In this document: positions 7,133 to 28,666 of the stretch, piece by piece | Layout of the letters: every line of letters begins with the position of its first letter | How positions within the stretch are numbered: the stretch's first letter is position 1 | NCBI GenBank assembly: GCA_028527945.1 | Contig: JAQQAK010000197.1 | Span: forward strand, 1-42,137 | Reading direction: 5' to 3' | DNA length: 42,137 nt | Source of the DNA: Spirochaetaceae bacterium | GTDB lineage: Bacteria; Spirochaetota; Spirochaetia; UBA9216 | Notes under the pieces: generated by a model | Databases searched by the model: none | What the model saw: the letters and a program-made list of their open reading frames with translations, nothing else | What the model was told of the DNA's origin: nothing | Program-made: the position numbers and the translations under genes

Positions 7133-8137
7133 TCAGCATATTCGGGGAAGAAGTTCTCCTCCGGGTTCAGGGAGCAATGTTTTGGCTCCTATTTCTGTTT
7201 TCATAACAACCCTTCCCGGCATTTCTGAGGTTACTTCTCCTATCACAGCAGCCTCCTTTGAATACGGAAGCTGTCTGAGAGTTTTTACTATCTGCTCGGC
7301 CTCATCCATTGGCGCAAAAACTACAAGTCGGCCTTCACAGGCAAGGTACAGTGGTTCAAGTCCCAACATTCCACAGACCCCGGCGACTTCTCCTGATACT
7401 GGAATCTCTTTTGAATCAAGACATATTCCTACATTGCTCTGGTTGGCAATTTCGTATAATACAGTTCCAACACCTCCCCTTGTTGCATCTCTTATTACAT
7501 GTAGTGTCTTTGTAACCTCGAGCATTTTCTCAACTGCTCCCCAAAGAGGAGCACAGTCACTTTTTATGCTTGTTTCAATCCCAAAATCTTCTCTGGACAA
7601 CAGAATAGAACATCCATGTCTTCCGATATCTCCAGTTACAATAACAGCGTCTCCTACACAGGCTTTACTTCCGGACAAGCTTATACCCTCTGCAAGCTGC
7701 CCAACACCGCTTGTTGTAATAAAAATATTATCAATCTGCCCCTTACCAGCGACCTTTGTGTCTCCGGCAACTATCTTCACACCTGTTTCTTTTGCCGTTT
7801 TTTCCATTGATGACGCAATTTTTTCAAGAATAGTCAGAGGAAAGCCTTCTTCAATAACAAAGGCGCAGGTCAGGTATAATGGCTTTGCTCCCATGCAGGC
7901 AAGATCGTTTACTGTCCCGCAAATACTTAGCTTGCCGATATTCCCTCCAGGAAACTCAAACGGTGAAACAATGAATCCGTCTGTTGAAAAAGCAATCTTT
8001 CCAGAGTCTATTTGAAGAATAGCCGCGTCATCTGCTGTAAGTAAGGGATTTGAGAAATGAGTTTTAAATACCTCATCTATCAGCATGGAAGTCTGTTTTC
8101 CTCCTGCCCCGTGTGCCAATGTAATATTTTTTTCCAT
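7133..8137 (-). CDS. hypE: Hydrogenase maturation protein HypE (carbamoyl dehydratase, PurM-like)
   Basis: The N-terminus is LAHGAGGK. The protein has PurM-like architecture and ends with the invariant PRIC motif carrying the cyanated cysteine. The ATG at 8137 overlaps the hypD stop (TAATG). Confidence 0.92.
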   Translation of the reverse strand: MEKNITLAHGAGGKQTSMLIDEVFKTHFSNPLLTADDAAILQIDSGKIAFSTDGFIVSPFEFPGGNIGKLSICGTVNDLACMGAKPLYLTCAFVIEEGFPLTILEKIASSMEKTAKETGVKIVAGDTKVAGKGQIDNIFITTSGVGQLAEGISLSGSKACVGDAVIVTGDIGRHGCSILLSREDFGIETSIKSDCAPLWGAVEKMLEVTKTLHVIRDATRGGVGTVLYEIANQSNVGICLDSKEIPVSGEVAGVCGMLGLEPLYLACEGRLVVFAPMDEAEQIVKTLRQLPYSKEAAVIGEVTSEMPGRVVMKTEIGAKTLLPEPGGELLPRIC

Positions 8138-9201
8138 TATAAGTTCCCTCCATATTGATAATAAGCTGAACATGCTCCCTCATTTGAAACCATGCATGCT
8201 CCAACCGGATGCTGTGGATTACAAATCTTTCCAAACAGTCCGCATTCTGTTGGTTTGCATTTGCCCTGAAGAATGTCTCCGCAGCGGCAGGCCGGATTAC
8301 TTTTTCCGGGAATCTTTGGAAGATTAAAACGTGTTCTTGCGTCAAAATCTTTGTAGTCGGCTCGGAGTTTCAAACCTGATTTTTTTATCTTACCAAGTCC
8401 ACGCCATTCTGAATCACAACTTTCCATTGTTTCGTTTACAAGTTCTTGTGCCGGTATATTTCCTTCGGATTTTACAACCCTTGGATAGCAGTTTTTGAAA
8501 AAAGGTTTACCCTTTTCTGACAGTTTGATTGCAACCGCCAAGGCCGTTAGAAGTTCATTAGCGGTAAATCCTGTCACAACTCCAGATACTCCTTCTTTTA
8601 CAAGGCTTTCACATACTGATGTGCCGGCTATTGCGTCTACATGTCCGGGATAAAGAAAGGCGTCCGCGCTGTTTTTTAGAATCTTGTATGCTTCTGGCAT
8701 TGTTTTATTTGCTACAAGTAAACTGAAGTTTTTGATTCCATCAGCCTTTGCCTTCTTTACAGCCAGGCATGATGCCGGAGTTGTTGTTTCAAATCCAACA
8801 GAAAGAAAAACTATTTCTTTATCCGGATGCTCTTTAGCGTATGATAGAGCGTCAACAGGCGAGTAGACCATCTTTATTGAGGCTCCTTTTTGTCTTGAAT
8901 CAGCAAGGCTCATTTTTGAGCCGGGAACCCTAAGGAGATCTCCAAATGTACAGATTACAGCCCTATGTTCAAGCGCCAACATAAGGCTTTCATCAATAAA
9001 GCCTACCGGTGTAACACAGACCGGGCAGCCTGGGCCTGAAATAAGTTTTATAGTGTCTGGCAGAATATTCCGTATTCCCAGACGAAATATCTCGTGGGTA
9101 TGTGTCCCGCATACCTCCATGATTCGTAGAGGTTTTCCTTTGTAGGATTCAATTATCTCTTTTGCCGACATTTTTTTATTTTCTATGCAAGCCGTCTTCA
9201 T
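8137..9201 (-). CDS. hypD: Hydrogenase maturation protein HypD
   Basis: It carries the conserved motifs MEVCGTHTH and GPGCPVCV and a C-terminal Cys-rich Fe-S region. The ATG directly abuts the hypC stop (TAAATG). Confidence 0.92.
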   Translation of the reverse strand: MKTACIENKKMSAKEIIESYKGKPLRIMEVCGTHTHEIFRLGIRNILPDTIKLISGPGCPVCVTPVGFIDESLMLALEHRAVICTFGDLLRVPGSKMSLADSRQKGASIKMVYSPVDALSYAKEHPDKEIVFLSVGFETTTPASCLAVKKAKADGIKNFSLLVANKTMPEAYKILKNSADAFLYPGHVDAIAGTSVCESLVKEGVSGVVTGFTANELLTALAVAIKLSEKGKPFFKNCYPRVVKSEGNIPAQELVNETMESCDSEWRGLGKIKKSGLKLRADYKDFDARTRFNLPKIPGKSNPACRCGDILQGKCKPTECGLFGKICNPQHPVGACMVSNEGACSAYYQYGGNL

Positions 9202-9408
9202 TTATAGTGACTCCATGATCTCATCAGTTTCATCTTCATCATTATCTGTAATCTTGGCGATTGCTATTCCGGCATGAACCATTACATAATCTCCCGGTTC
9301 CAGATCCTTTATAAGCTCTGCCGAGATCTCTCTTTTAGCTCCGGATGCGTCAATTATGGCCATTCCGTTATCAATTCCAATTACCTTTGCTGATAATCCA
9401 ACACACAT
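9202..9408 (-). CDS. hypC: Hydrogenase maturation chaperone HypC/HybG/HupF family
   Basis: The protein is 68 aa and begins MCVG, which places the essential Cys at position 2. SD AGGAGGG lies upstream. Confidence 0.9.
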   Translation of the reverse strand: MCVGLSAKVIGIDNGMAIIDASGAKREISAELIKDLEPGDYVMVHAGIAIAKITDNDEDETDEIMESL

Positions 9409-9419: not shown

Positions 9420-11735
9420 TTAAAATTCATGTTTTAAACTTGTCATTGCTATAACCGCCTGTCCAAGGGCTATAGCTCCATCGTTAGGCGGTGTCAGGCT
9501 GTGAAGCAGAACCTTGAAACCTTTCTTTTCAAGACTTAATACACACAAGGATGTAAGAAGCTTGTTCTGAAATACACCTCCACTCAACGCGCATGTATTT
9601 AGTCCAGTGCTGTCGCGGGATATCTTGCATCCCTCTGTAATCATTTCAGATAGAACTGAATGAAATTCAAACGCGAGCTGTTCCTTTTCTATTCCAGCAA
9701 GAACGGAATCGGTTATATGTCTAAAGAGCAGATCTGTGCTTAGCTCAAATTTTCTACCGTTTTTCGAGAGCATTTTCTTTGCCCATTCTTTTACGGGAGA
9801 TTTTGCTCCTTTAAAGTTTTCTGCCGCAAACTGCAAGGCCATAGCCGCTTCCCCTTCAAATGTTGAACATTTTTTTATAGAAAGAACTGCGCTTACAGCA
9901 TCAAAAAGTCTTCCGGAGCTTGTGGAGCTAACAGTATTAATGCCTCTATCTATTATTGCTCTTTGAATATTCATCTCTTTCTTTGTGCAGAGCTTAAGGC
10001 TGTTAATTATTTCTTCAGATTCATTTCCGTAAATTTGACATAGCATTGAGACGGCGATTTTCCATCCTTCTCTTGCTGAAGAATCTCCGCCGGGCTGAGT
10101 GAATGGGCAGATACTACCAAGCCTTTCAAAATCCCTGTAAGAAGCCCTGAGGAATTCTCCTCCCCATATACTTCCGTCTGTTCCATATCCGGTACCGTCA
10201 AAACATACGCCTATAACATCTTCCTTATAATTATTTTCTGCCATGCAGGAGGCTACGTGTGCCCAGTGGTGCTGTACCCTGATAACTGGAATATTCAGTT
10301 TTTCAGCAACCATGACCGAATTATATCCGGGATGTAAATCACAGGCTGCGATCTGTGGTTCTGCTTCAAGAAGTCCTTTCATTCTTGTTATGGACTCTTT
10401 AAGAGCAGTAATTGTTCGTATGTCTGAAAGATCTCCGACATACGGCGATAGATAAAAAAGATTGCCTTTTCCTATGCAGAATGAATTTTTCAATTCTCCG
10501 CCAATTCCTATAACCTGGCCGTTTAAGGTTTCTGACAACAGAAAAGGAAGGGGGGCGTAGCCACGAGATCGGCGAATCATATACGGTTTATGTTGAAAAA
10601 AGTCCATCACTGAATCATCAGCGCGAAGCAATATTCTTCGGTTATTAGAAAGTATTAGATCGCAGAAGCTTCTAATTTCGGAAATTGCGTCTTTGTCATT
10701 TCGGCAGATGGGCGCTCCTGATACATTACCGCTTGTCATAAGAAGGCAGTCAGTCATTTTTATATTATCATCGTATTCAAAAAGGAGCATATGTACCGGA
10801 GTGTACGGCAACATAACGCCTACAGTCGGATTATCTGGAGCAATTTGATTGCATAAGCTGCTATTAGCTTTCTTTGGTAACAGAATTATTGGTTTTTCAT
10901 GACCTGTAAGTATTTTTTCCTGCTCAGGTAGTATTGCACATTCTCTTTTTGCGGTATCTATATCGCGGAGCATAACTGCAAAGGGTTTAGTAGGGCGGTT
11001 TTTAAGACGTCGTAGACGGCTTACTGCCTTTTGATCTTTGGCATTGCAGCATAGGAGAAACCCTCCTATTCCTTTAACAGCTATAATCTTTCCTTCCATT
11101 ATTGCTTTTCTGGCTGTAGTTATGGCTTCACGATTTTTTTCTTTTTGACCTATAATATACAGTTCCGGGCCGCAGCTGTTGCAGCATACTGGTTGGGCGT
11201 CATACCTTCTTGTTTCAGAATGAGTGTATTCATATTCGCATTCATCGCACATTGGAAAGTCCGCCATGGTTGTTCGCTCTCTGTCGTATGGAAGAGATTC
11301 AAGGATGGTAAGTCTCGGCCCACAATTAGTACAGTTTATAAAAGGATGAAGGTAGCGCCTGTTGTTTTTGTCAAAGAGTTCCTCCCTGCATTTGTCGCAT
11401 GTTGCTATATCCGGAGATACAAAAATATCTCCACTTTCTTTCTTGCTATCTATTATTCTAAAACTATCAAAGAGTTCTTCTGTGGAATCATTGATTTCTA
11501 TTTTTATTATTGCTGACCTCTCCGGAGGAGTTTTTCTTAGCGCTTCTAAAAGACCTTTGATAGCAGATTCAGAGCCTTGTGCTTTTATCTCGACAAAAGA
11601 CCCTTTGTTTGCTACCCAGCCCTTTATTCCCAGTGCGCAGGCTGTTTTACTGACAAAGGGTCTAAATCCTACTCCTTGTACAATACCGTAAACACGAATA
11701 ACACGGGCAGCTGTAGCTATTAATTCCGCCTTCAT
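9420..11735 (-). CDS. hypF: Carbamoyltransferase HypF
   Basis: The 771-aa protein has an N-terminal acylphosphatase domain (VQGVGFRPF) and two CxxC...CxxC zinc-finger pairs (CDKC..CTNC, CDEC..CNSC). YrdC-like and Kae1-like C-terminal regions follow. The ATG overlaps the stop of the upstream nitrogenase-like gene (ATGA at 11732-11735). Confidence 0.93.
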   Translation of the reverse strand: MKAELIATAARVIRVYGIVQGVGFRPFVSKTACALGIKGWVANKGSFVEIKAQGSESAIKGLLEALRKTPPERSAIIKIEINDSTEELFDSFRIIDSKKESGDIFVSPDIATCDKCREELFDKNNRRYLHPFINCTNCGPRLTILESLPYDRERTTMADFPMCDECEYEYTHSETRRYDAQPVCCNSCGPELYIIGQKEKNREAITTARKAIMEGKIIAVKGIGGFLLCCNAKDQKAVSRLRRLKNRPTKPFAVMLRDIDTAKRECAILPEQEKILTGHEKPIILLPKKANSSLCNQIAPDNPTVGVMLPYTPVHMLLFEYDDNIKMTDCLLMTSGNVSGAPICRNDKDAISEIRSFCDLILSNNRRILLRADDSVMDFFQHKPYMIRRSRGYAPLPFLLSETLNGQVIGIGGELKNSFCIGKGNLFYLSPYVGDLSDIRTITALKESITRMKGLLEAEPQIAACDLHPGYNSVMVAEKLNIPVIRVQHHWAHVASCMAENNYKEDVIGVCFDGTGYGTDGSIWGGEFLRASYRDFERLGSICPFTQPGGDSSAREGWKIAVSMLCQIYGNESEEIINSLKLCTKKEMNIQRAIIDRGINTVSSTSSGRLFDAVSAVLSIKKCSTFEGEAAMALQFAAENFKGAKSPVKEWAKKMLSKNGRKFELSTDLLFRHITDSVLAGIEKEQLAFEFHSVLSEMITEGCKISRDSTGLNTCALSGGVFQNKLLTSLCVLSLEKKGFKVLLHSLTPPNDGAIALGQAVIAMTSLKHEF

Positions 11736-12778
11736 TTTTCAAGCCTTCCAGATACCGCAAAATGTGGAAAGTCAATAAATCGTCCATTATATTTTTTCAT
11801 TACACGCCTGAAAATTTCATCTCCAATAACTACATCATAATCTCCACTTTCTAAAATTCCTTTAAGCTGATCCTCTTCTGTAAGTCTGAAATCATGCTCT
11901 TGCATCAGGCTCTCTTTCAGCATAAACCATGACGCTACGGTGATATCAGCTTCTGTTTTTTTCAAGATTAAATCTCTAACACTATTGGCCGCTACCTGTT
12001 GGTGAATTATCAGTATTTTTTTCCCCTTTAATTCATAGAGCTCTTTTTGAAGGCTTTCCGGGATGGGTATGATATTAGTGATATAAGGAGTTCCAAATTT
12101 TTCTTTAAGGTATTCTGCTGCCTTAAGCCCCGATGGGGAAACTACAATATTTTTTTCTACTGCCGAAGCCTTTTTTATAAATTCAAGTCCGCTTCCCATT
12201 CCATAACAGGTTGTGTTTTTCCATCCTCTATTTTCTAAATATACTGTTATATTTTTTTCAGCTTCCAGGTTGCTGAAATCAAGAGGTGTTGCACCTATCA
12301 CGCCTGCACTTCCTTTCTTTACTGGTAGTTGTTCGACACTGAAGGTTTTAAAAAGCTCCAGATACGCTTGTTCTGCGCCCTCGTCATAATATCTGGTTCC
12401 GGTTGTTTCTATTGTTATAGACGGCAGTCCTGTGCGTTTTTCAGCCATTCGTTTCAAAGCCTTGAAGTCTGTAGCTATTACCGCCGGAACAGGGGTTCCT
12501 ACAAGGGTTGTGAAGTCTACATTTGTTTTGGACGCTGCATCCTGAAGTTTTTCAATAAGTTTGTCATCACGCCCAAGGATAGCATCTATATCGCGGAGTC
12601 CTGCACTAAAAATAGCGCTTTTTTTATGAAACCACCGCGGTTCATCAAATCCACATATATTTCCGGTACATCCTCCCGCGTCACAGATTACTGTAAGACC
12701 ACCAAGCTCGTATAAAACTGACACTGCGCCAGAAAGATCCGGAGCAAAGGGAGACAGCCGCTTTAAAAGATTATTCAT
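11732..12778 (-). CDS. Nitrogenase component-1-type oxidoreductase subunit, beta (NifK/NifN)-like, cassette 2
   Basis: It lies after a NifH-like/NifD-like pair. It shares N-terminal motifs with the 14869..16020 paralogue (SGxxSxLYELGGxTVxxDAxGC and DEPRW). At 348 aa it is shorter than canonical NifK/NifN. Confidence 0.7.
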   Translation of the reverse strand: MNNLLKRLSPFAPDLSGAVSVLYELGGLTVICDAGGCTGNICGFDEPRWFHKKSAIFSAGLRDIDAILGRDDKLIEKLQDAASKTNVDFTTLVGTPVPAVIATDFKALKRMAEKRTGLPSITIETTGTRYYDEGAEQAYLELFKTFSVEQLPVKKGSAGVIGATPLDFSNLEAEKNITVYLENRGWKNTTCYGMGSGLEFIKKASAVEKNIVVSPSGLKAAEYLKEKFGTPYITNIIPIPESLQKELYELKGKKILIIHQQVAANSVRDLILKKTEADITVASWFMLKESLMQEHDFRLTEEDQLKGILESGDYDVVIGDEIFRRVMKKYNGRFIDFPHFAVSGRLEK

Positions 12779-14072
12779 TTATTATTCCTCCTGACAAAGC
12801 TGTATTGAGACTTGTAAAAAGTCTTTTAACTCCTGAGTAACCAAACGGTTGGCGTTCTTCGTTCCAGTAGATTCCAGGACATTCTGAATGGTAATAGGCC
12901 GCGTCCTGGCCTATGAAGGCGTCTGCGTCTGAGTTTTCAGCGCTATGGTAGAGCATTGTTGGAGACAGGTTTGAATAGATTCTTGTTTCCGGACTTATAT
13001 CCGAAATCTTCTTTATATATGCGAAGTTTATCTCGCCTGCCGTCCCATAAATATCGGAGACTGAAAATCCGTAACGTATTAATGCCAGAGATAATTCAAA
13101 TGGATCCGCGTTTACCCATTCACCTACCGCAAATATACGATTACTATGCTTTTTGTAGCATTCCTCTATAGCTGAAAGGGCTTCGTCATAGTATTTTTGA
13201 TCATCAAACTTTATTCCGGCAGCCTCTCCAAATAGTTTATATTGAGTTTGAATTTTGTCGATCTGATACATTCTGTTTAATTCTATACCAGGAATTTCCA
13301 GTCTGTCTGCCATATCCTGTGCAGCGTATCTTGCCTCCTGATTAAGAATCAGATTAAAGTTTGCTTCGGACATCTTCATGTATTCATTAAAATTTTCACA
13401 TCTGGAAATTTCCCGGATTTGAGTGACACCCGCTTTTTTAAGCATGGTGTAGAGTTCACATTCATCATCAATAGGAGAAAAATATCCAAGCAGGTTAACC
13501 GATGTCGGCTTTTTGGGAGTAGGCTCAAGAAGAGAATAGATCGATTTTCTTACCGCGGCCATTGGAGGGAGCCTCCCTTCTCTAGTAAGGGCGTACATAT
13601 AGCATGGCAGAACTGGAATGCCCACAAATGCTGAGGCCTTCCGACATACCCGTTCCATATCGGTACCAAGAAGGGCGTCTACACATGTTATACAGATCAT
13701 AACAACAGATGGTGGTTGTTCACATGCTTCGCAAACTTCTTTAACGGCCTCTGGTATCTTTGAAAGATGGCGTCCTGTTACAATATCCGTTTCATCCATC
13801 AGCATATAGAAGAACTTGTCGGAATCGCCTTCTTTTCCTCCAGCCAATGTGGTGTTTCTTCCACAGCAGGCCGGAGCCGCAAGTAACATAACAGACCCTG
13901 GAATAGACAGCCCCGCGCGTTTGACTCCAAATCCCTGAGCACCAGGAGAATTAAAGGCTAGGGTTGCCGGAGAGCTGTAGATCATATGAGCTGAAGACTG
14001 AAGTTCTGCAGGAATATTATCCTGCCCCAAAGCCGCAAGTTGTTTTGCTGTGATGCTGTAAACATTATTCAT
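12771..14072 (-). CDS. Nitrogenase component-1-type oxidoreductase subunit, alpha (NifD/NifE)-like, cassette 2
   Basis: The size (~434 aa) and position after the NifH-like gene fit an alpha-like subunit. Cys-containing motifs are [16 protein letters not shown] and [10 protein letters not shown]. It is a paralogue of 16017..17348. I chose the ATG at 14072, preceded by GGAGG at 5-nt spacing; an alternative ATG lies at 14087. Confidence 0.7.
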
Positions 14073-14829
14073 TAGAGCCTCCGTCATTAATAAACTGCTC
14101 TGCCAGTTTCAGGAATATCTGGCTTACATGAAGCATTTTGTCTCCCTCTATAACGGTTTTTCCCATATCCTCATAGCGGATAATGTCGTCACTTCTTGGT
14201 ATATCAGCTATGATAGGGAGTCCGGCTTTATTAGCGAAATCAGTAACCTTTTCCTCTTCCCTTTCAACACTTCTCCGGTTCATCACAATTCCCTTAACCT
14301 TTGCGTAGCCACGATCTTCGAAGTTGTTTACTGCTGTGTTTATATTGTTTGCGGCATACAAGGCCATTTTTTCTCCTGACGTTACAATAATAATCTCCGA
14401 GGCATAGCCCTCACGTATTGGGGCCGCAAATCCACCACATACAACGTCTCCTAGCACATCATATAAAACAACATCGGGCTGATACTTCTTAAATAGTTTA
14501 AGATCCTCAAGAAGGCTGAATGTTGTAATTATTCCCCGTCCAGCGCATCCCAGACCAGGAGTAGGGCCGCCTGTTTCTATGCATAGAATCCCTTTGAACC
14601 CTTCCTTTGCAATATCTTCTATTTTTTCAGGTTCCCGGTCATATTCGCGTAAATAATTCATAACTGGCATAACAGGATTGCCGTTAAGCAGGTTTGTTGT
14701 AGAGTCAGCTTTTGGATCACATCCTATCTGAATTACTTTCTTGCCAAGAGCCGCAAAGGAGGCGGCAAGGTTGCTTGTAATAGTTGACTTTCCTATTCCG
14801 CCCTTTCCGTAAACAGCAATCTTTATCAT
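14065..14829 (-). CDS. NifH/BchL/CfbC-family ATPase ([4Fe-4S] reductase component), copy 2
   Basis: It carries P-loop GKGGIGKS and switch I CDPKADST, plus both cluster-ligand cysteine motifs (GCAGRGI and GDVVCGGF). Length is 254 aa. SD GGAGGA lies upstream. Confidence 0.9.
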
Positions 14830-14868: not shown

Positions 14869-16020
14869 TTAAATATCTCTAAAAACTGTAGCTTTTAGAG
14901 ATTCCTTTATCATATTGGGTATTTCGCTTCGATAGCATCTTCCGGAGAAGGCCTCATGCGGAAGTCGGTAAAACGGTACATCATTAGGGCAGATGGGCTT
15001 ATAAAGGGGGTCTGCTATAATTCCGGATGCAAGAGCAAGCTCTTTTTCCGCGCTTTCTTCGTCCGGAATTTCACCATCACTTTCTGCCTGCAATTCAGTT
15101 GATGTTTCAAGCGGACATAAAACCCTTGCCGTCTTTCCGTATTCCAGCTCAATAGCGCGTGCTAACGAACCGGAATAAATGCTTTCACCTACTATTGAAA
15201 GATTGCTCCCGTTTGTAAAACGTTCTGAACTCGGAAAGAGGTTTTCTTTGTTTTTTGAAGCTGTTCTCAATTTATCTGCGAGAACTCCAGCAAACTTTTG
15301 ACCGAATGGGACTCCGGTAACATATGGTGTTCCGAATCTCTTTTTCAACAGTTTTGCCGCGGAAAGCCCACTGTATGATATAACCAGATTTACACTGGCT
15401 CCGGCGGCGTTTTTTATATCTTCAAGGCTGCTTCCCATTCCCATACAGGAGACTGTGCTAAACCCCTCCGTGTAAAGCCATTGTTTTATAGATTTGATAC
15501 TTCCGTTTACAGAGAAATCAAGCGGTGTTGCACCCAGTATATTTACAGAATCTTTTTTTTGCGGCATGTTATCTTCTTTACAGAAGCGATTTATTATTGC
15601 CTCGAATGCTTCTGAGGCTCCTTTTAAATAAGAATGCATTCCATTTGTCTGTATACAAAAAGAAGGTATACCTGTGTTTTCTTCTATTTCTATAGCTAAT
15701 GCCTGATAATCTGTTCCAATCATCATTGCTACGGGAGCTCCACATAGGGCAATGAATTTGGGCGAAAGCTTACTTGCTGTTTCTGTAATATCTGAAACCA
15801 GCTTTGCATCATCCCCCATTATTGCCTCAGTTTCTGTGAGGGCGGAAATGTATACCATGCTGTCAATATCGTACCACCTTGGTTCATCGTGTGTTGTATA
15901 TGTCGAGTTGCATCCTGAAGCGTCATGAACTACTGTCATGCCTCCCAATTCATAGAGGGCAGAGCACACACCAGAGGTGTCTGCCGCGTATATTGGTATA
16001 ATTCTTGCGCTATGTTTCAT
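14869..16020 (-). CDS. Nitrogenase component-1-type oxidoreductase subunit, beta (NifK/NifN)-like, cassette 1
   Basis: It is a paralogue of 11732..12778 with the same N-terminal motifs (SGVCSALYELGGMTVVHDASGC, DEPRW). The ATG at 16020 overlaps the upstream stop (ATGA); the ORF-track start at 16026 is a TTG codon. Confidence 0.7.
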   Translation of the reverse strand: MKHSARIIPIYAADTSGVCSALYELGGMTVVHDASGCNSTYTTHDEPRWYDIDSMVYISALTETEAIMGDDAKLVSDITETASKLSPKFIALCGAPVAMMIGTDYQALAIEIEENTGIPSFCIQTNGMHSYLKGASEAFEAIINRFCKEDNMPQKKDSVNILGATPLDFSVNGSIKSIKQWLYTEGFSTVSCMGMGSSLEDIKNAAGASVNLVISYSGLSAAKLLKKRFGTPYVTGVPFGQKFAGVLADKLRTASKNKENLFPSSERFTNGSNLSIVGESIYSGSLARAIELEYGKTARVLCPLETSTELQAESDGEIPDEESAEKELALASGIIADPLYKPICPNDVPFYRLPHEAFSGRCYRSEIPNMIKESLKATVFRDI

Positions 16021-17348
16021 AAGCAACTCTCACATCCAAGCCCCTTATAGCTTATTAGCTCTTTTGTTTTTTTTGGCTTAAGGCTGGCCTCTATCATCAT
16101 TTCTGCTAACCGGATTATTCCGCTAAAACCGTATAGCCCTCCACCTGAGACTATGTTGACAAAATATGGTGTATTATTGAAATAGGCTGCTTTTTGACCT
16201 ATTGCAAGAACCTTTCTTTCTGGAATTTCTTTTTTAAGAAAACGCTTTTCAGGATGAACCGTTGAAGCTAATAAAATATTAGGCGCATGTTCTTTCAACC
16301 AAATAAAGTCTTCTTCTTCAGTAGCCACAAAGGCCTCGGAATAAATTTTTTCTACTCTAAAACTGTGTTCTGTCAGCAGCCTTGCCAAGCTTATTGGGCG
16401 TGGAGTCGCTGTGTAATCTATTGTTATGGGAAGATTTCCTATTTCTGTATGAGCCGCCTCAAGAGCCTTTTCTGCCTTTCTTATATCTTCTGAAAAATCC
16501 GGTATTTTCATATCTAATTCTACAGAAAGTCGTTTAAAATTCTCTGTTATTTCATGATATGAATAGCTTAAAGGTATATGCAGGTGTCTCTGTCCAAGGC
16601 GCCGTTCAAGTTCCTCTCCAGCAGCATAGGTTGTTGGAAGATATGTAATATTTACAGCACTCTCGGCCATATTAAGAAAGGCCTTGTAGCTTTTGCAGTT
16701 TGTAATGTCTTTTATCACAAAGCTGCTTTTTTTTATCATTGTAATAAGTCTACCTGATTGATCTGTCGGTCTATCATTTCCAATTATATTGATGCTTTTG
16801 CTGTTTTTAGGCACAGGTTTTAGCGGGCTATAGAGTTGTTTACGCATCAGGGCATCCGGAGTAAGACCACTCTTTCGCATAGTAGGAGTCATATAGCTTT
16901 CAATAAAGTCTACAGTTGGAAATCTTTTTTCAAGCTCTTTAAGCGTTATAGCAAAATCGCAGCATGCAAAAAGATGTACACAGCTTAAAAAAACTAATAC
17001 AACAGGAGGCAACGTTTCCATTTTATTCAAGATTTCTGTAGTTCCATTTACAATATCGTCTTCAAGACTCGCATCAAGAAAGTCGTTTTCACAGATTGAA
17101 ACCCATGACATCCTGTCCATGGCGTTCATTTCGGCAGCTGTTAAAATTACTCCACGAAGGCAGCCCTGTGCGCATATAAAAATTTGATGCGATTCAGGGA
17201 TAAGCATCCCTGTATGCACTATATTCCATGTTCCTCTTGCCGGAGCATTGTATTCCAGGCCTGTAATAAATGGTTCAGGAAAGGCTGCCTTTGCAATACT
17301 TATCTCAGGGGCTTTAGTTTCATTAATAGTTTTAAGACTTTTCAGCAT
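16017..17348 (-). CDS. Nitrogenase component-1-type oxidoreductase subunit, alpha (NifD/NifE)-like, cassette 1
   Basis: The 443-aa protein has Cys motifs [16 protein letters not shown] and [13 protein letters not shown]. Their arrangement resembles the three-Cys cluster-ligand pattern of NifD/NifE/BchN. It overlaps the NifH-like gene by 7 nt. Confidence 0.7.
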
Positions 17349-18109
17349 AATTGTTTCCTATAGTCAAGTTTCAGAAGCCTTTCCGCTATCTTCCTGTATT
17401 GTTTGGCCATTTCGCTTTCAGGAAAGGCTTCTATAACCGTCTTTCCGGTAAGTTCTGCTTCTTGAACGGTCGTGCTCCAGTCCAGCTTTCCTATAATTTT
17501 TGTTTCAAGATCTTCTGCGAGCTCTTTTACTTTAGCTGATTCATTTTTTACGTTACGGTTGTTTTGAATAAGTCCAGCAAGAGAGGCGTATCCTCTCCCC
17601 TGGAATCCCTCAACTGCCATAGCAATATTGGCCGCGGCATGAAGAGCCATATTTTCTCCCGATGTAATGATGAGAACCTTGTCTGTGTATCCTCCTCTCA
17701 TTGGCATAGAGAATCCCCCGCACACAACGTCTCCCAGAACGTCGTATAAAACTACATCCGGTTTGTATTTTTCGTACGCGCCCTTTTGAGCCAATTTCTC
17801 AAGAGCTGTAATAATTCCGCGTCCGGCACATCCTTTTCCAGGCATTGGCCCTCCCGCTTCAACACAAATAACATTACCAAAGCCCCGGCATACCATATCT
17901 TCCAAATCGAAATCGTTTTTATATTCTCTGACAAGCTCAAGAACAGTAGGTAGTTTTGTATTGGAATGAAGGCTTTTTGTAGAATCAGCCTTTGGATCAC
18001 AGCCTATCTGCATTACGCTGAGCCCTGTTTGTGAAAGTGCTGCTGCAATATTGGATGTAGTGGTGGACTTTCCTATTCCGCCTTTTCCATATACGGCTAT
18101 TTTAATCAT
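17342..18109 (-). CDS. NifH/BchL/CfbC-family ATPase ([4Fe-4S] reductase component), copy 1
   Basis: It carries P-loop [23 protein letters not shown] and GDVVCGGF. Length is 255 aa. The ATG overlaps the hydE stop (ATGA at 18106-18109). Confidence 0.9.
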
Positions 18110-19161
18110 GAATTATTCCTTCCTTTATAATCACCTCTTGAGATTTTTATGTCATACCCGATAGACGACATCCGTTTGCGCAAATCTATCATGCATCTTG
18201 ATGTTTCAACGTCAGAGTTTTGTTTGTTGTTGTAAAGCATGTATTTGCCCCTGACCCGACTGGGGGATAGATTTGGCATAATAACGTTTGCTCCTGCAAG
18301 AATACCTTTTTCCCGTCCTTCAGGATCGATAGTTCCAAGGGCTGTTGTTGCCGGCAGTAGAACATCCGGCAGCATAATTCTGCAAAGGCTAAGAAAGAAT
18401 AAACTTGTCTCAAGGCTTCCGGTTTTTTCAGCAGCAAATGGGGTGTCCTTATGGGGGATAAAAGGGCCTATACCTATCATTTCAGGATTAAAGTTTGATA
18501 GAAACTCCATATCCTTAACCATACAGTCTATATTCTGGTAGGGAGCTCCTACTATAAAACCACAACCTGTTTGATAGCCTGTATCTTTCAAGTCCTGTAG
18601 ACAGCGCATACGGTTTTTCCATGACTGCTTAGCGGGGTGCAGTGCTTTGTAGTGTTTTTCATCTGCTGTTTCATGTCTAAGCAGGTAGCGGTCTGTTCCA
18701 GCTTTAAACAGGTTTGTGTAATCTTCCGGTTTCAGCTCTCCCACTGAAAGAGTTACTGCTGAATCCGGATATTTATTTTTAATTTCAGAAACAATATCTG
18801 CCAGTTTATCAGTTGTAAAATATGGATCTTCGCCGCTTTGAAGAACAAAGGTTCTAAATCCCTGGGAATGGCCCTTTTGGCAGCAGTTAAGGATATCTTC
18901 TTTCGATAGTCTGTATCTGCCTATTTTAGAATTGGAATGCCGTATTCCACAATAATAACAGTCATTTTTGCAAAAGTTTGAAAATTCTATTACGCCGCGT
19001 ATATATATACTTTTTCCAAATTTTTGTAATACGACAGTTCTGGCAATAAAAGCTGCATATGTTCTATCCTCTTCTATCCAGCTGGATAAAAGCTTTTTCC
19101 ATTCTGAAGAAGATAGCCTTTTTTCTTTATTAAGACGATCAATTAATTCCATATTATTCAC
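18106..19161 (-). CDS. hydE: [FeFe]-hydrogenase H-cluster radical SAM maturase HydE
   Basis: The protein is BioB-like and ~350 aa, with the radical SAM motif in the HydE-typical context [17 protein letters not shown]. It sits next to hydF and the aspartase-like gene, as in known hyd maturation clusters. The listed start is GTG at 19161; an alternative ATG lies at 19152. Confidence 0.82.
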
Positions 19162-20434
19162 AGGCTGAATCTCTATTATTGTTTTTCAGAAGTATTTTTA
19201 GTTTTTCTTCCGCCTCAGAAGGTGTTTTGCTTGCTTTTACGATCTCTGCCACGGTGTCGTATCCCAGGACGGTGCTGTAGGAGGTGGCATAAGCAAATGA
19301 ACGTTTTAGAAGTTTTTCACAATTTATTTTGTTTGGAATCAAAACCGATATACATTTTTCATCAAAAATACATACCGCACGTTCCAAAAGATTCAGGCTT
19401 TCAAGCATAGAGTCGGCTATTAATGGAAAAAAGGCATTCAACTCAAATTCTCCATGAGCCGCTGCCATTGTTATCGCATTATCATTAGCAATAACTCGCA
19501 TCGCGCACTGCATAACCATTTCCGGAATTACTGGATTAACCTTCCCGGGCATTATGCTACTTCCTTTCTGCATTTCGGGAAGGGTTAACTCTCCAATTCC
19601 TCCCCTTGGCCCAGAGGCCATAAGGCGGATATCGTTTGCTATCTTCATCAGATTTACGGCAAGAGCCTTTAGCAGACCGGAAGTTTCCACAAAAACATCA
19701 TTATTCTGGGTGACATCCATTGGATATTCTGCCGAGGCAAGTCCTATGCCTGTGAGTTCCCGTAGAATCTCTATTATTCTGAAACGATACTTCCGCTCTG
19801 CGTTATCGTATCGACCTACTGCTGTTCCTCCAATGTTAACTTGCCTCAGACGTTCTTCAACCTTGTACAAGCGCCATCGGTCCCGGGCAATAGCTTGGGC
19901 ATAGGCTCCAAACTCACTTCCAAGAGTTATTGGAACAGCGTCCATCAGTTCTGTTCTTCCAAGTTTTTTTATCTCATCAAATTCCTTTTCTCTCGTCTGT
20001 AAGCTTTCCTGAAGTTTGGCACATGCATCGCTTAAATTTCGCAATAGTCTGACTGCTGCTATTCGAAGAGCTGTAGGGTAGACATCGTTTGTTGATTGTC
20101 CACGGTTTACATCGTTTAGTGGATGAACCAGTCTTCCTGTTTTTTCTGAAGCAGCCGTGGCAATGACTTCATTAAGATTCATATTTGTTGATGTTCCAGC
20201 TCCTCCCTGAAGGGCTTCTATGATAAAACTGTCATCAAATTCACCGTTGATAATTCTGTCGCATATTTCGGCTATACAATTGTACATTTCTGGTTTTATG
20301 TTAAGTTCTTCATATGTTAGAGCGGCCGCTTTCTTTACTACGGCAATAGCGTAAATCAAATTTATATTTGTTTTTTTATGATTCAAACTGAAATTATTCA
20401 TGGCTGATTCTGTTTCTTTTCCGTAATATGTCAT
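19154..20434 (-). CDS. Aspartate ammonia-lyase/class II fumarase superfamily protein (hyd-cluster-associated lyase)
   Basis: It carries the superfamily signature GSSIMPGKVNPVIPE. At 426 aa it is shorter than canonical AspA/FumC. The ATG overlaps the hydF stop (ATGA). Confidence 0.8.
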   Translation of the reverse strand: MTYYGKETESAMNNFSLNHKKTNINLIYAIAVVKKAAALTYEELNIKPEMYNCIAEICDRIINGEFDDSFIIEALQGGAGTSTNMNLNEVIATAASEKTGRLVHPLNDVNRGQSTNDVYPTALRIAAVRLLRNLSDACAKLQESLQTREKEFDEIKKLGRTELMDAVPITLGSEFGAYAQAIARDRWRLYKVEERLRQVNIGGTAVGRYDNAERKYRFRIIEILRELTGIGLASAEYPMDVTQNNDVFVETSGLLKALAVNLMKIANDIRLMASGPRGGIGELTLPEMQKGSSIMPGKVNPVIPEMVMQCAMRVIANDNAITMAAAHGEFELNAFFPLIADSMLESLNLLERAVCIFDEKCISVLIPNKINCEKLLKRSFAYATSYSTVLGYDTVAEIVKASKTPSEAEEKLKILLKNNNRDSACE

Positions 20435-21645
20435 TTGTCAGCTGGCTCCAGAACAGAGGCTAATCCGGGGAAAATAGCGATACTTCGTTTAAGTATTCCC
20501 TGCATATAAGCAATTGTTATTCCGTAATTTGTGAATGGAATCTTCTGATCCATCGAACATTTCATGCGGTAAACCATTTCTCTCCCTGTAAGCATGCAGC
20601 CGCCGCAATGTATGATTAAAGAATATTGTTCAAGCTCATCGGGAAATTCTGTTCCAGAAACTGTTTCAATAGAGATAGATTTTCCTGTGTAGTTTCTAAG
20701 CCACCGCGGGATTTTTACGCTTCCTATGTCATCGCATTGCCTATGATGGGAGCACCCCTCCGCTATAAGTACCCGGTCTCCGTCTTTCAGAAATTCTACT
20801 GCCGCAACGCCTTTGACTGCAGTGTTTAAAAAGCCTTTGTATCTGGCCATAAGTATGGAAAAGGAGGTTAGGGGAATATCTGGAGGAGTGTCGGCCGAAA
20901 CCTTCGCGAAGACCTGACTGTCTGTAATTACCATCGCAGGTTTTTCTCCAAGTTTTTCAAGGGTTCCCCTCAGTTCGAACTCTTTTACTACAATGGCCGC
21001 TGCGTCAGCCTCAAGGATATCTCTTATCGTCTGCTGCTGCGGGAGAATCAGACGCCCTTTTGGCGCAGCCTTATCAACCGGGACTACAAGTATTACGAAA
21101 TCGTCAGGATTAATAAGATCGCCAACAATCTGCAGCTTCGAATCTCTTACATCAATAGATTTGGAAATTTTTTCTTTTAGCTCATTTATTCCTGTTTTCT
21201 GAATAGCGCTTGTACATATTTCATGTGAATTATTTGTTGGTAGATTATCTTCAAGATCGCATTTATTTAGCACAACGATATAAGGAATATTTTTTTGTTT
21301 AAATATTTCAATCAGCTCTTTTTCACAACCATCTTGAGCTTCTGTAATATCTGTTACAAGAACTGCGACATCTGTTTTATTCAGAACCTGTTTTGTTTTT
21401 TTTACGCGCATTTCTCCAAGTTTTCCTGAATCGTCAAAACCTGGGGTGTCAATAATCATTACCGGGCCCATTGGCAGTAATTCCATTGCCTTGTACACCG
21501 GATCTGTTGTTGTTCCTTTTTGGTCTGAAACAAGAGCAATATCCTGATCTGTTACCGCGTTTACAATACTGGACTTTCCAGCGTTTCTTCGTCCGAAGAA
21601 TCCTATGTGTATACGATTTGCCGATGGTGTATCATTCATTCCCAT
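20431..21645 (-). CDS. hydF: [FeFe]-hydrogenase H-cluster maturation GTPase HydF
   Basis: The N-terminal GTPase G1 motif is GRRNAGKSS. The C-terminal cluster-binding motif is CSHH...(about 45 aa)...HCGGC. SD GGGGAGG lies 5-6 nt upstream of the ATG. Confidence 0.88.
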   Translation of the reverse strand: MGMNDTPSANRIHIGFFGRRNAGKSSIVNAVTDQDIALVSDQKGTTTDPVYKAMELLPMGPVMIIDTPGFDDSGKLGEMRVKKTKQVLNKTDVAVLVTDITEAQDGCEKELIEIFKQKNIPYIVVLNKCDLEDNLPTNNSHEICTSAIQKTGINELKEKISKSIDVRDSKLQIVGDLINPDDFVILVVPVDKAAPKGRLILPQQQTIRDILEADAAAIVVKEFELRGTLEKLGEKPAMVITDSQVFAKVSADTPPDIPLTSFSILMARYKGFLNTAVKGVAAVEFLKDGDRVLIAEGCSHHRQCDDIGSVKIPRWLRNYTGKSISIETVSGTEFPDELEQYSLIIHCGGCMLTGREMVYRMKCSMDQKIPFTNYGITIAYMQGILKRSIAIFPGLASVLEPADK

Positions 21646-21669
21646 GTTTACCTCCCCGTTTATAACCGC

Positions 21670-21709
21670 AAAAAAAAAGATAGCCGTACCCTGACGGATA
21701 CGGCTATCT
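21670..21709 (-). terminator. Intrinsic terminator-like hairpin plus U-run, lying between the TM1266-like gene and hydF
   Basis: The stem is a perfect 11 bp (21678-21688 pairs with 21699-21709) with a 10-nt loop. On the minus strand it is followed by nine T residues (21678-21670). The U-run ends 24 nt before the hydF ATG. Confidence 0.7.
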
Positions 21710-21846
21710 TGCGCTTTCGTGATTAATAGCTATATCGAACTTTCGTCTCAATAAAAATTTTGACGTCAGGTGATACTTTGCTTCAGGAACTTTTGTTCCC
21801 AATATATGTAACCGGGGTTTTTATGTCCCGATATTGTCTAATATTT

Positions 21847-22110
21847 TTAAGTGTCTGCCTTATTTATAATATTTGAATAGACTGTTTTGGCTGAAACACC
21901 ATTAAGTCTGCCAATCTTTCCTGCAAGATTGTTAATGATGTCCTGCGGGGCATCAATAGCGACGCTTATAATATTAACACCCTTTTCTTTGTATGGAAGC
22001 CCCATTCGCCCAATAATGTAAGAACCTGTTTCATGCAATAAGGCGTTAATCTGAGTTGCAGAATCTCTGCTCTCCGCTATTATTGAAATAACGGCTACTC
22101 TTGTTTCCAT
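21847..22110 (-). CDS. Small ACT-like protein of the TM1266 family (putative iron-only hydrogenase system regulator)
   Basis: The ~87-aa sequence METRVAVISII...SYIIGRMGLPY...VNIISVAIDAP matches my recollection of the TM1266-type family that accompanies hydE/F/G. I chose the ATG at 22110, preceded by GGAGGAAAC; the ORF-track start at 22143 falls inside the putative promoter. Confidence 0.65.
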   Translation of the reverse strand: METRVAVISIIAESRDSATQINALLHETGSYIIGRMGLPYKEKGVNIISVAIDAPQDIINNLAGKIGRLNGVSAKTVYSNIINKADT

Positions 22111-22128
22111 GTTTCCTCCATTTAAACA

Positions 22129-22156
22129 ATTATTCACACACATGGTTAAATGTCAA
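22129..22156 (-). promoter_or_regulatory. Putative sigma70-type promoter for the TM1266-like gene and the downstream operon
   Basis: On the minus strand there is a perfect -35 TTGACA (22156-22151), a 16-nt spacer and -10 AATAAT (22134-22129, 5/6 match). It lies about 20 nt upstream of the SD/ATG at 22110. Confidence 0.4.
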
Positions 22157-22179: not shown

Positions 22180-22994
22180 TCACTTCTCAAAAAGCACTAT
22201 GCACTCGGTAATATAATTTTCCGGCCTGCTTATTAGTATTGATCCAGGGCCTTTTACAAAATGCTCAATGATTGGAAGCTTTGGTGTATATCCCTTTTTA
22301 TGGCAGTAGTTGAAAAGCCTCAGGTATGTGCTTCCCTGTCCGCCGTAGTTGCCCCTGTAAATGGTCTTGACTGCGTGAAGGTTTTCAATGCTTTTATAAT
22401 TTAGCCCTTTTATCTGAATCTCTTTATGGCTTTCCATGCCAGCTTCCATTTTTGCTCCATCTTCCTTATATTCAAGGTTATAATAAAATCAGTAGGGTTT
22501 TCCTTTTCCATAGCGGCCGGCCTTCTTGTATAACTCTTTGAAGGCTGTTCCAATTTCATCATACCTTCCGGTTAAGGGGATGAAGAGAAAGTGGGGGATA
22601 CTGACAAGGCATTCCTGAATTTCGTGGAGGCTGAAATCTCTTCGGTTTTTATTTGCTCTTCAAGGGATAAAAGTCTGTTCTCCATCTTTTTCAATTCTGA
22701 AGCCTTTAAGCGGATCTCGCTTATTTTTTCCTGTATGAAAGATTTTAGATCTTCCTCGGCCTCACACTTTTCAAGAATTGTTTTTATCTCCTTAAGAGAG
22801 AAGCCAAGCTGCTTGAGACTGATAATTGAGTTTGCCCTGTTGAAGGAATCGTTATCGTAATAGCGGTAACCGGTCATCTCATCTATCTTCACCGGAACAA
22901 GAATGCCCAGCTCGTGGTAATACCTGAGAGTCTTTACAGTCAGTCTTGTAACCTGAGAAAATTCTCCTATTGAAAGCATTGCTCCCTCCATCAA
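22180..22994 (-). pseudogene. MerR-family regulator with a GyrI-like (BmrR-type) effector domain, disrupted by a frameshift and an in-frame TGA
   Basis: The 22572..22994 ORF encodes the MerR HTH (LSIGEFSQVTRLTVKTLRYYHELGIL) plus a coiled coil. It then runs into a stop. The GyrI-like continuation (..GRYDEIGTAFKELYKKAGRYGKGKPY*) is in another frame and hits TGA at 22489-22491. The remainder continues in that same frame as ORF 22180..22449. Confidence 0.65.
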
Positions 22995-25189: not shown

Positions 25190-25204
25190 CTTTTTCCTTT
25201 ACCA

Positions 25205-25236
25205 TGATCAGCCATATTTTTAGCCTGATCAGCCAT
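25205..25236. promoter_or_regulatory. Direct repeat TGATCAGCCAT x2 with 21-bp period in the divergent AraC/binding-protein promoter region (candidate operator)
   Basis: Identical 11-mers lie at 25205-25215 and 25226-25236, each followed by a T-rich tail. Two helical turns of spacing is the classic arrangement of AraC-type half-sites. Confidence 0.45.
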
Positions 25237-25329
25237 TTTTTCATGCAATTTATTGTAGCACTTAATATTTATGTTTTACAATAAAGTTAGTTAATTGAGG
25301 TTAATAAATAGTGTAAAGGAGAAATAATA

Positions 25330-28059: not shown

Positions 28060-28660
28060 GTTCTGCTCCCTTGATGTTGATTCCTTTTATCAGTACTTCT
28101 TGATCATCAAAAATATTTATACGGCAAAAACTACCCTTGTCTATTTGAAAGAGCCAGTGCCCTTCTATTCCAGTTTTTGAAAGCTGTGAAAGAATACACC
28201 TGATTGGCCCTCCGTGAGAAACTATCAAATAGCGGCCGTCTTTTCCATTACAAACAATGTTTTTCATAAACACCTCAATTCGCTTATTCAGCTGTGCAAG
28301 ACTTTCTCCTTCCGGCGGTTTATAGCTTTCTGGAGCAGAATACCATAGTGTTAAACGCTCCTTGTCAGTTTTGTTTATTTCATCATATGTCTTACCTTCC
28401 CATTCACCAAAATTAAGTTCTTTGAGATCTTCACATATGATGGGTTTTGGAGTTTCCTCCATTTTTAGAAATGGCTCAATACTTTGTAAACAGCGAAGCA
28501 TTGGACTTGTGAATATAAAATCTGGTTTAAAATCTCTTAGGGCTGAAACAAGCTGTTCTGCCTCTTTTTTTCCCGAGCTGGACAGTGGGACATCACTGCC
28601 TCCTCCAATGTATCCTTTTTTATCGTGTTCACCATGTCTTAGTAAGAGTAGATCCTTCAT
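28046..28660 (-). CDS. cobC: Alpha-ribazole phosphatase (histidine phosphatase family)
   Basis: The N-terminal RHG motif (LLLRHGE) and the SHGG motif are present. The specific assignment rests on its position between cobS and cobT. Confidence 0.75.
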   Translation of the reverse strand: MKDLLLLRHGEHDKKGYIGGGSDVPLSSSGKKEAEQLVSALRDFKPDFIFTSPMLRCLQSIEPFLKMEETPKPIICEDLKELNFGEWEGKTYDEINKTDKERLTLWYSAPESYKPPEGESLAQLNKRIEVFMKNIVCNGKDGRYLIVSHGGPIRCILSQLSKTGIEGHWLFQIDKGSFCRINIFDDQEVLIKGINIKGAEHGFN

Positions 28661-28666
28661 TGTTGT

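Follow-up and report, generated by a model that had tools for sequence, protein, structure and literature searches.

Background

Why should the maturase genes of one type of hydrogenase be translationally coupled to nitrogenase-like genes, and be followed in the same operon by the maturase genes of another type? The question is raised by contig JAQQAK010000197.1, one complete contig of 42,137 bp from a metagenome-assembled genome (MAG) of the Spirochaetales; in the following, 'the window' means this whole contig. From position 22143 down to 7133 its minus strand carries 14 genes in one tightly packed operon, in the order TM1266-like, HydF, lyase, HydE, H1, D1, K1, H2, D2, K2, HypF, HypC, HypD, HypE. 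Here H1 and H2 are NifH-like ATPases, and each D and K pair consists of subunits resembling nitrogenase component 1. An earlier note on this DNA had singled out hydF, the lyase gene and hydE (operon genes 2-4), and treated the nitrogenase-like gene next to them as a mere neighbour. It took the missing hydG and hydA to be meaningful and proposed a crossover between the Hyd and Hyp maturation pathways.

We find that the supercluster to which the operon belongs is widespread and conserved, and that the window holds its fullest version. The parts of the supercluster are a TM1266-like gene with a leader RNA; HydE, accompanied by HydF in about half of the loci and only rarely by the lyase; a first nitrogenase-like module (H1 D1 K1, also called set 1 below); and a second such module (H2 D2 K2, set 2) together with HypF-C-D-E. 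The nitrogenase-like genes are not bystanders; they form the conserved core of the unit. The cluster encodes a nitrogenase-like system with unprecedented maturase partners.

Conservation of the cluster

Relatives of D1 were searched for using one genome per species, and at least 567 species have one. Out of 8,000 scored candidates, 3,604 were D1 homologues at E <= 0.001; all 120 among the matches listed had E <= 1e-149, and the family comprises 227 clusters (50% identity, E <= 1e-30). The best 80 of the at least 567 loci, each with 10-kb flanks, were used as the synteny sample. These are the nearest relatives of the window D1, i.e. a non-random sample of the family, and the window's own MAG is absent from it. 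Open reading frames (ORFs) in these loci were simple longest-ORF calls, assigned by phmmer to the 14 window proteins. Counts were restricted to loci with enough flanking sequence (69, 49 or 51, depending on the feature). The sampled carriers include Clostridium ljungdahlii (locus L048; the numbers with L are our own locus numbers), C. ragsdalei, C. muellerianum, C. luticellarii and Ruminococcus albus AR67 (L082), as well as a Synergistaceae chromosome, many Lentisphaeria/Victivallales, Oscillospiraceae, Lachnospiraceae and Blautia. The synteny thereby spans four phyla, namely Spirochaetota, Bacillota, Lentisphaerota and Synergistota.

HydE is located directly upstream of H1-D1 in 57 of 69 loci and elsewhere in the locus in 4, while 8 have no HydE. 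At 49 of 64 junctions the start of H1 overlaps the end of HydE (distances of -8, -7, -4 or -1 nucleotides). A TM1266-like homologue was found in 45 of 49 loci and HydF in 25 of 49; the lyase is rare, being present in the window and in 1 of the 49 loci. D2 and the Hyp genes occur together within 10 kb in 35 of 51 loci and are both absent in the remaining 16, and neither was ever found alone (0 of 51).

The genes are combined in different ways. The full type, seen in the window and in R. albus, has TM1266, HydF, HydE, H1 D1 K1, H2 D2 K2 and HypFCDE. A short type has two TM1266-like genes, HydE and H1 D1 K1, often followed by a binding protein/ATP-binding cassette (ABC) importer and HydF. The C. 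ljungdahlii type has H2 D2 K2, HypFCDE and H1 D1 K1, without HydE.

Fusions involve both modules. Three Clostridium species encode H1 and D1 as a single protein of some 700 amino acids (L002:10001-12103, L006:9236-11332, L007:9209-11329). To our knowledge, a NifH-type ATPase fused to its component-1 partner is unusual among nitrogenase-like systems. In one Oscillospiraceae species (L058:110-9503, L087:2339-11733, L088) K2 is fused to HypF in a protein of 1,121-1,151 amino acids. The same species has a [FeFe]-hydrogenase-like gene of 484 amino acids, 13 nucleotides upstream of D1 and at the usual position of HydE/H1, with the motifs TSSCCP, GPCIAKKME and EGMACVNGCIGG. We considered whether [FeFe]-hydrogenase and D1 are neighbours in general and rejected this, as the arrangement was seen in that one species only. 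A 75%-identical homologue stands elsewhere in an ordinary HydS/SpoIIE-phosphatase context (L086), so the adjacency is lineage-specific.

Operon structure

The window operon has 13 junctions, of which ten are overlapping or abutting, two are gaps of 11 and 39 nucleotides, and one is a 201-nucleotide leader. The latter lies between the TM1266-like gene and hydF and is the sole large gap. As the earlier note had stated, the hydE stop overlaps the start of the NifH-like gene: the two share ATGA at 18106-18109, with a AAGGAAGGA ribosome-binding site ahead. The same AraC...HydF-lyase-HydE-NifH-like junction is present on an independent metagenome contig of 9.7 kb (L001), which possibly comes from the same sample as the MAG.

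The [FeFe]-hydrogenase maturases

Nearly all ORFs of the window of at least 80 amino acids were scanned with Pfam or NCBIfam, supplemented by a six-frame motif scan. The gene products of hydF, the lyase gene and hydE are bona fide maturases of the [2Fe]H subcluster, and the description of HydF and HydE as intact proved right for both; the lyase is intact as well.

HydF (20431..21645, minus strand), the GTPase that serves as scaffold and carrier for the [2Fe] subcluster, scores 573 bits against TIGR03918 (cut-off 326) and 379 bits against the T. neapolitana HydF structure 3qq5. It has the HydF_dimer and HydF_tetramer domains (PF18128, PF18133). All motifs quoted for it were found, i.e. GRRNAGKSS (G1), CSHH and HCGGC, the latter two making up the CxHx(~45)HCxxC cluster motif, and C298, H300, H346, C347 and C350 are invariant among 28 cluster-linked HydFs.

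HydE (18106..19161, minus strand), the radical S-adenosylmethionine (SAM) maturase, scores 525 bits against TIGR03956 (cut-off 255) and 273 bits against T. maritima HydE (TmHydE). Its radical SAM motif CX3CX2C is CKNDCYYC at 18949-18972. The list of TmHydE functional residues was taken from PMC11826987 and the positions were read on a HMMER alignment to TmHydE. The window protein keeps R54, T134, R155, M224, T269, M291 and K309, and the CX3CX2C motif as well as all seven residues are invariant in 64 cluster-linked HydEs.

The gene between them (19154..20434, minus strand) encodes an AspA-like ammonia-lyase of the fumarase/aspartase family (Lyase_1, 4e-82). It scores 509 bits against NF008909, the aspartate ammonia-lyase subfamily, whose cut-off is 510, and lies well below the cut-offs of TIGR00839 (399 against 681) and of class II fumarase TIGR00979 (383 against 665). 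The protein is some 40-50 residues shorter than AspA and has the catalytic SS-loop GSSIMPGKVN from residue 291, matching the signature GSSxMPxKxN. That ammonia-lyases provide the bridgehead nitrogen during maturation has been demonstrated (PMC11736057), and the lyase of the window is presumed to be the NH3 donor for the azadithiolate bridge.

The nitrogenase-like modules

All six proteins fall within the nitrogenase-like superfamily and outside every characterised member for which an equivalog model was used. H1 (17342..18109, minus strand; Fer4_NifH 9e-86) scores 315 bits against the NifH equivalog (cut-off 394) and 312 against CfbC (NF033200, cut-off 402). For H2 (14065..14829, minus strand; Fer4_NifH 2e-88) the corresponding scores are 302 and 293 bits. 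Both are also under the BchL and BchX cut-offs. Both ATPases have the P-loop, which in H1 reads GKGGIGKS, and both cluster cysteines, which are invariant (C94 and C130 in H1, C95 and C131 in H2).

D1 (16017..17348, minus strand, 443 amino acids) is a very divergent component-1-like subunit. The window protein gave no Pfam or NCBIfam match, though its homologues carry PF00148, and NCBIfam is without any model for D1. Based on an AlphaFold2 model (pLDDT 80, pTM 0.83), D1 is predicted to have the nitrogenase component-1 fold. The best Foldseek matches of the model were NifK, NifN, NifE, VnfK, AnfK, MarD/K and BchN/B, with E around 1e-17 at 10-16% identity. Invariant cysteines in D1 are C59-x3-C63, C123, C218 and C439-x2-C442. 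The last pair belongs to an invariant ...GC-x-SCL tail at the end of the chain, which is disordered in the model. K1 (14869..16026, minus strand; PF00148 4e-32) is the partner subunit, NifK/N/BchB-like, with conserved C21, C39, H34 and H46 and every equivalog far under its cut-off.

D2 (12771..14087, minus strand; PF00148 4e-29) is NifD/NifE-like and the more Nif-like subunit. Among PDB sequences, nitrogenase alpha chains and NifE match it best (3e-11 to 2e-9). D2 was aligned by MAFFT to a sequence which we take to be A. vinelandii NifD, as nine landmark residues agree with the published numbering. In this low-identity and therefore uncertain alignment, C74 of D2 aligns with NifD C88 and C135 with C154, both P-cluster ligands. 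No FeMo-cofactor ligands were aligned in the same uncertain alignment, where NifD C275 corresponds to Leu and H442 to a gap. The conserved residues C230 and H400 of D2 were considered as equivalents of C275 and H442, having a spacing of 170 residues against 167. They are aligned 12-19 residues away, and since the alignment fails to superpose them on C275/H442, the spacing was dropped as evidence. The partner subunit K2 (11732..12778, minus strand; PF00148 3e-18) has invariant C32, C37 and C42.

Taken as a class, the D/K-like proteins score at most 70 bits against Nif-type equivalogs with cut-offs of 327-1229, so they are not true nitrogenase or NifEN subunits. K1, D2 and K2 are far below all Nif, Vnf, Anf, NifEN, DPOR and COR equivalogs. 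CfbCD is not matched either, TIGR03282 (CfbD) giving 29 bits against a cut-off of 268. Membership of the component-1 nitrogenase-like superfamily is given by PF00148 or by the fold, and conserved cysteines are present in all four D/K subunits.

The HypFCDE genes

The last four genes of the operon, all on the minus strand, score above curated cut-offs. HypF, the carbamoyltransferase (9420..11735), reaches 761 bits with TIGR00143 (cut-off 466) and all five HypF domains were found. The chaperone HypC (9202..9408) reaches 60 bits with TIGR00074 (cut-off 48) and begins MC..., with Cys2 invariant. HypD, the scaffold (8137..9201), gives 398 bits with TIGR00075 (cut-off 193) and 4e-135 with PF01924, and has the motif CGTHTH. 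HypE, the cyanide-forming ATPase (7133..8173), gives 424 bits with TIGR02124 (cut-off 252) and has the C-terminal ...PRIC. The longest hypE ORF overlaps hypD by 37 nucleotides (8137-8173); its true start is probably later, because the match to the HypE family model begins at residue 16. The set falls short of a full [NiFe]-hydrogenase maturation locus: in the window the Hyp genes are linked neither to genes for HypA, HypB or an endopeptidase nor to structural genes of a hydrogenase, and HypA and HypB were likewise found in none of the Pfam-annotated example loci.

Leader RNA and TM1266-like protein

The first gene of the operon (21847..22143, minus strand) encodes a small TM1266-like protein, an 'iron-only hydrogenase system putative regulator'. 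It scores 106 bits with TIGR03959 (cut-off 61) and 4e-29 with PF21699, and matches PDB 2nzc.

The gap behind it contains a conserved leader RNA (21667..21772, minus strand), consisting of a hairpin followed by an intrinsic terminator, which was found by terminator scan, folding and a covariance model. The flanks of the hairpin, CCUGACGYC...GRCGAAAG, are invariant. The terminator has a GC-rich stem of 15 bp (21677-21710) followed by a U-run, and ends about 20-30 nucleotides before the hydF start. The 201-nucleotide leader folds at -60.7 kcal/mol, with z = -5.7 compared to shuffled controls.

By alignment and RNAalifold the leader was also found in Clostridium, Caproicibacter, Synergistaceae and Ruminococcus loci; examples are L002:8604-8700, L009:9074-9177 and L051:6813-6917. 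A covariance model, R1, was built from seven sequences and gave 54 plus-strand matches in 52 related loci. Of these matches, 38 lie 12-136 nucleotides downstream of a TM1266-like gene and 14 upstream of one. In the 52 loci the element always stands on the coding strand, beside a TM1266-like gene. Two stem pairs covary (GC 28 / AU 21; CG 30 / UA 21), in an alignment that was fitted to the model. The switch occurs in about 40% of the sequences, and controls with slid partners fall from 95% paired to 29-49%. Rfam has no credible family for the leader, neither with the whole window at gathering thresholds nor with the leader at permissive thresholds. The element looks like an undescribed attenuator and is a candidate attenuator or riboswitch. 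The TM1266-like protein would be a candidate partner of the leader, judged from their positions.

The TM1266-like gene is closely preceded by an ORF of 89 amino acids without family match (22180-22449, minus strand). L001 has it as a called gene, and it was seen in no other loci.

Hydrogenases of the carriers

As the earlier note had said, the window contains neither HydG nor HydA. The family scans of the ORFs and the six-frame motif scan found none of HydG, HydA, [NiFe] large subunit, HypA or HypB in the 42-kb window. Besides HydE, it encodes just two radical SAM proteins, namely a B12-binding protein (37810-39294) and MnmL/YtqA (40574-41563). The significance attached to the missing hydG and hydA has to be given up, because the window is a single MAG contig and 42 kb without them is uninformative. 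Moreover, cultured carriers have [FeFe]-hydrogenases, which leaves the premise of a 'HydG-less organism' unsupported. The proposed crossover therefore divides in two: the Hyd-Hyp linkage is real and conserved, as seen from the synteny in four phyla, the coupling and the K2-HypF fusion, whereas the premise of an organism lacking HydG is not supported.

In its specific form the crossover would mean that HypCDEF replaces HydG: HydE/HydF would be fed with Fe(CN)2CO, which the nitrogenase-like modules might first alter, and would complete the normal [2Fe]H for a HydA encoded elsewhere. Neither a HydG-like radical SAM ORF nor a [NiFe] large-subunit-like ORF was found within 10 kb in about 85 related loci, in which HydE, HydF and Hyp do occur. 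In further support, HydE and HydF appear canonical in every respect, the window also has an ammonia-lyase as required for the bridgehead nitrogen, and translational coupling runs through the whole operon. C. autoethanogenum is a close relative of the cluster-carrying C. ljungdahlii. HydG has been reported for C. autoethanogenum, so no HydG substitute is needed in the C. ljungdahlii lineage. Short-type loci speak against the replacement as well, having HydE and HydF with no Hyp nearby; and the ligand stoichiometry and the cysteine ligand of the HydE substrate are unlike those of the Hyp product. Hyp is not an obligate partner of HydE in any case, since 16 of 51 loci are without Hyp and the C. 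ljungdahlii type is without HydE nearby. We regard a replacement of HydG as improbable.

A second possibility is a split regulon without chemical crosstalk. Hyd would serve [FeFe]-hydrogenases with a HydG encoded elsewhere, Hyp would serve [NiFe]-hydrogenases elsewhere, and the nitrogenase-like sets would perform an unrelated reduction, co-regulated with H2 metabolism. In its favour, the maturases are all canonical, and the modules occur in different combinations. The Clostridium acetogens have several [FeFe]-hydrogenases and one group 1a [NiFe]-hydrogenase. Those that carry the cluster have HydE and HydF at other positions, and the HypCDEF of the cluster is their only set. With a group 1a [NiFe]-hydrogenase and a single HypCDEF set, the cluster Hyp proteins in acetogens probably also do their ordinary job. 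Strain BL-3, another carrier, has Hnd/HydA genes, and the sole HydE listed for it is the cluster copy (PMC7764203 supplement).

Chance co-regulation, on the other hand, leaves several observations unexplained. These are the HydE/H1 overlap at 49 of 64 junctions, the strict co-occurrence of set 2 and Hyp (35 against 0 and 0), the K2-HypF and H1-D1 fusions, and synteny over Spirochaetota, Bacillota, Lentisphaerota and Synergistota. R. albus adds a further point. The hydrogenases described for strain 7 are HydABC, HydA2 and HydS, none of them [NiFe] (PMC10838669), and strain AR67 (L082) carries the full cluster including HypFCDE. As only [FeFe]-hydrogenases have been described for the species, Hyp in R. 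albus seems to work with a non-classical client, with the caveat that AR67 and 7 are different strains. We consider a split regulon unlikely.

Transport genes and a possible imported chelate

Many short-type loci have transport genes next to set 1. A Peripla_BP_2 lipoprotein is present in 27 loci, directly after K1 where inspected, a FecCD-type permease in 21 and an ABC ATPase in 9 (examples of such genes are L030:12458-13600, L024:9704-10855 and L024:1587-2612). This suggests that metal-chelate import is linked to nitrogenase-like set 1.

By analogy to CfbCD and DPOR, the nitrogenase-like sets might act on an imported metal chelate or tetrapyrrole, e.g. by releasing or tailoring iron, with the maturases as downstream users. 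Besides the transport genes, it fits this idea that H1 and H2 score almost equally against CfbC and NifH, and that nitrogenase-like genes beside ABC transporters were noted by Dos Santos et al. 2012 (PMC3464626). Full-type loci are without a transporter, however, and the cluster has no linked genes for tetrapyrrole biosynthesis. The window operon also has no such transporter: the binding protein encoded at 25330-26475 was considered as a cluster member and rejected, being only distantly related to the binding proteins beside K1 in short-type loci (E 2e-10 to 7e-6) and located beside cobalamin salvage genes. We hold action on an imported chelate to be very unlikely.

Proposed pathway

We propose that the full cluster serves one pathway to an Fe-CO/CN cofactor, with the nitrogenase-like modules as putative ATP-driven scaffolds, reductases or acceptors. 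We give this reading, drawn from sequence comparison, an even chance. It is favoured because a radical SAM enzyme combined with two component-1 heterodimers having their own ATPases recalls NifB-NifEN-NifDK, the place of NifB being taken by HydE and Hyp.

The operon would then be a single assembly line for an organometallic Fe-CO/CN centre. HypFCDE would make the Fe(CN)2CO unit, to be handled by module 2, in which D2K2 would serve as a scaffold or an acceptor and H2 would be a reductase or insertase driven by ATP. HydE, which keeps all residues for binding and dimerising Fe(CO)x(CN) units, would work with module 1, and HydF and the lyase, where present, might add the NH-bridged dithiolate. The final acceptor could be a nitrogenase-like protein, the best candidate being D1, whose terminal CxxC tail is invariant, or a [FeFe]-hydrogenase encoded elsewhere; the disordered C-terminal tail of D1 would suit a swinging arm that carries metal or ligand. 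The leader RNA probably gates expression, possibly through the TM1266-like protein. A stronger version, namely that Hyp and HydE(/HydF) build a new organometallic Fe-CO/CN cofactor that is housed in D1K1 or D2K2, we put forward as tentative, and we would not expect it to be correct.

Several points weigh against a single pathway. All of the mechanism is read from synteny, fusions and conserved residues, and the 80 loci behind the synteny are those nearest to the window D1, i.e. non-random. The modules are separable: the 16 of 51 loci that are without module 2 and Hyp within 10 kb have HydE and module 1, and in the C. ljungdahlii type, which comprises four Clostridium species, both modules and Hyp are present with no HydE or TM1266-like gene nearby. 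The maturases may simply serve ordinary hydrogenases, as the sole HydE of BL-3 and the sole HypCDEF of the acetogens are cluster copies. The Hyp product, Fe(CN)2CO, differs in ligand counts from the known substrate of HydE, Fe(Cys)(CO)2(CN). Finally, the ABC importer beside K1 in many short-type loci hints at an imported metal chelate.

Comparison with known systems

The arrangement hydF-aspA-hydE as such is published and common (Pagnier et al. 2024, PMC11736057). Hyd maturation operons with aspA (PMC11736057; T. maritima TM1266-TM1269) share HydF, an AspA-like lyase, HydE and a TM1266-like protein with the window. The window differs in having no nearby HydG or HydA and in coupling HydE to a NifH-like gene, and its operon runs on into six nitrogenase-like genes and hypFCDE.

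With the NifB/NifEN/NifDK line the cluster shares a radical SAM protein, two paralogous component-1-like heterodimers and NifH-like ATPases; D2 keeps the likely equivalents of NifD C88 and C154, and D1 has the predicted component-1 fold. In contrast to the Nif line, the radical SAM protein is HydE and not NifB, each set has its own NifH-like protein, all Nif, Vnf, Anf and NifEN equivalogs are far below cut-off, and C275/H442 have no aligned counterparts.

Compared with HypCDEF for [NiFe]-hydrogenases, the window HypF, HypC, HypD and HypE exceed the curated cut-offs and keep the catalytic motifs. They differ in that no HypA, HypB, endopeptidase or hydrogenase is linked and that Hyp travels with set 2, once fused to K2.

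The Group IV NFL (nitrogenase-like) systems (MarBHDK, CfbCD, Isr, Nfa; PMC13474568) likewise have a NifH-like ATP-dependent reductase and a D/K-like catalytic component, and the structural matches of D1 include MarD and MarK. Unlike the present cluster, the Group IV systems have maturases of the NifB type or none at all, and their substrates are organic compounds or tetrapyrroles.

The Chemical Reviews survey from 2026 on nitrogenase-like systems (PMC13474568) makes no mention of HydE or hydrogenase maturation, and no 'Hyp' passage seen in it concerns Hyp proteins. Dos Santos et al. 2012 (PMC3464626) made a one-sentence remark on an association of nitrogenase-like genes with Hyp. It almost certainly concerns the same type of cluster, and C. 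catus lies outside the loci examined here. The remark gave no anatomy, no link to HydE, HydF and TM1266, no distribution and no leader RNA. It was the only item found in a literature search for a characterised nitrogenase-like/HydE/Hyp system. There is, in our judgement, a substantial though less than even chance that the cluster is categorically new.

Other genes in the window

A divergently placed AraC regulator and the lone Peripla_BP_2 binding protein (24242-26475) stand beside a cobalamin operon. The latter (27037-31932, minus strand) is a nucleotide-loop/salvage operon with CobT, a CobC-like phosphatase, CobS, CobU, CobD aminotransferase and CbiB. No cobalamin riboswitch was found in the window at Rfam gathering thresholds. 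Further on, at 37810-40542 (minus strand), the B12-binding radical SAM protein of 494 amino acids matches known families weakly, none better than a lipid-biosynthesis family with 60 bits. It is adjoined by a protein of 414 amino acids without NCBIfam match, and downstream are a DeoC/LacD-family aldolase and an AraC regulator.

Implications

The Nif, Hyd and Hyp assembly systems have been studied separately and are here partly wired into one translationally coupled operon. At least 567 species have kept the arrangement, among them members of Ruminococcus, Blautia, Oscillospiraceae, Lentisphaerota and Synergistota as well as acetogens of industrial use, for example C. ljungdahlii. A context is thereby assigned to a large nitrogenase-like family that lies outside the coverage of the 2026 review.

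If the parts cooperate chemically, this would point to a novel Fe-CO/CN cofactor or to an additional route by which known ones are made. Should the cofactor indeed be housed in D1K1 or D2K2, these proteins with their own NifH-like reductase would be a new enzyme class, possibly handling H2, CO or CN. Such an enzyme would be widespread in gut and rumen anaerobes, and a leader RNA element of a new kind would control it. Two questions become testable, namely from where the anaerobic Hyp pathway takes its CO and which alternative clients it has, and whether HydE works with partners other than HydG; C. ljungdahlii and C. autoethanogenum are genetically tractable carriers or hosts for this purpose.

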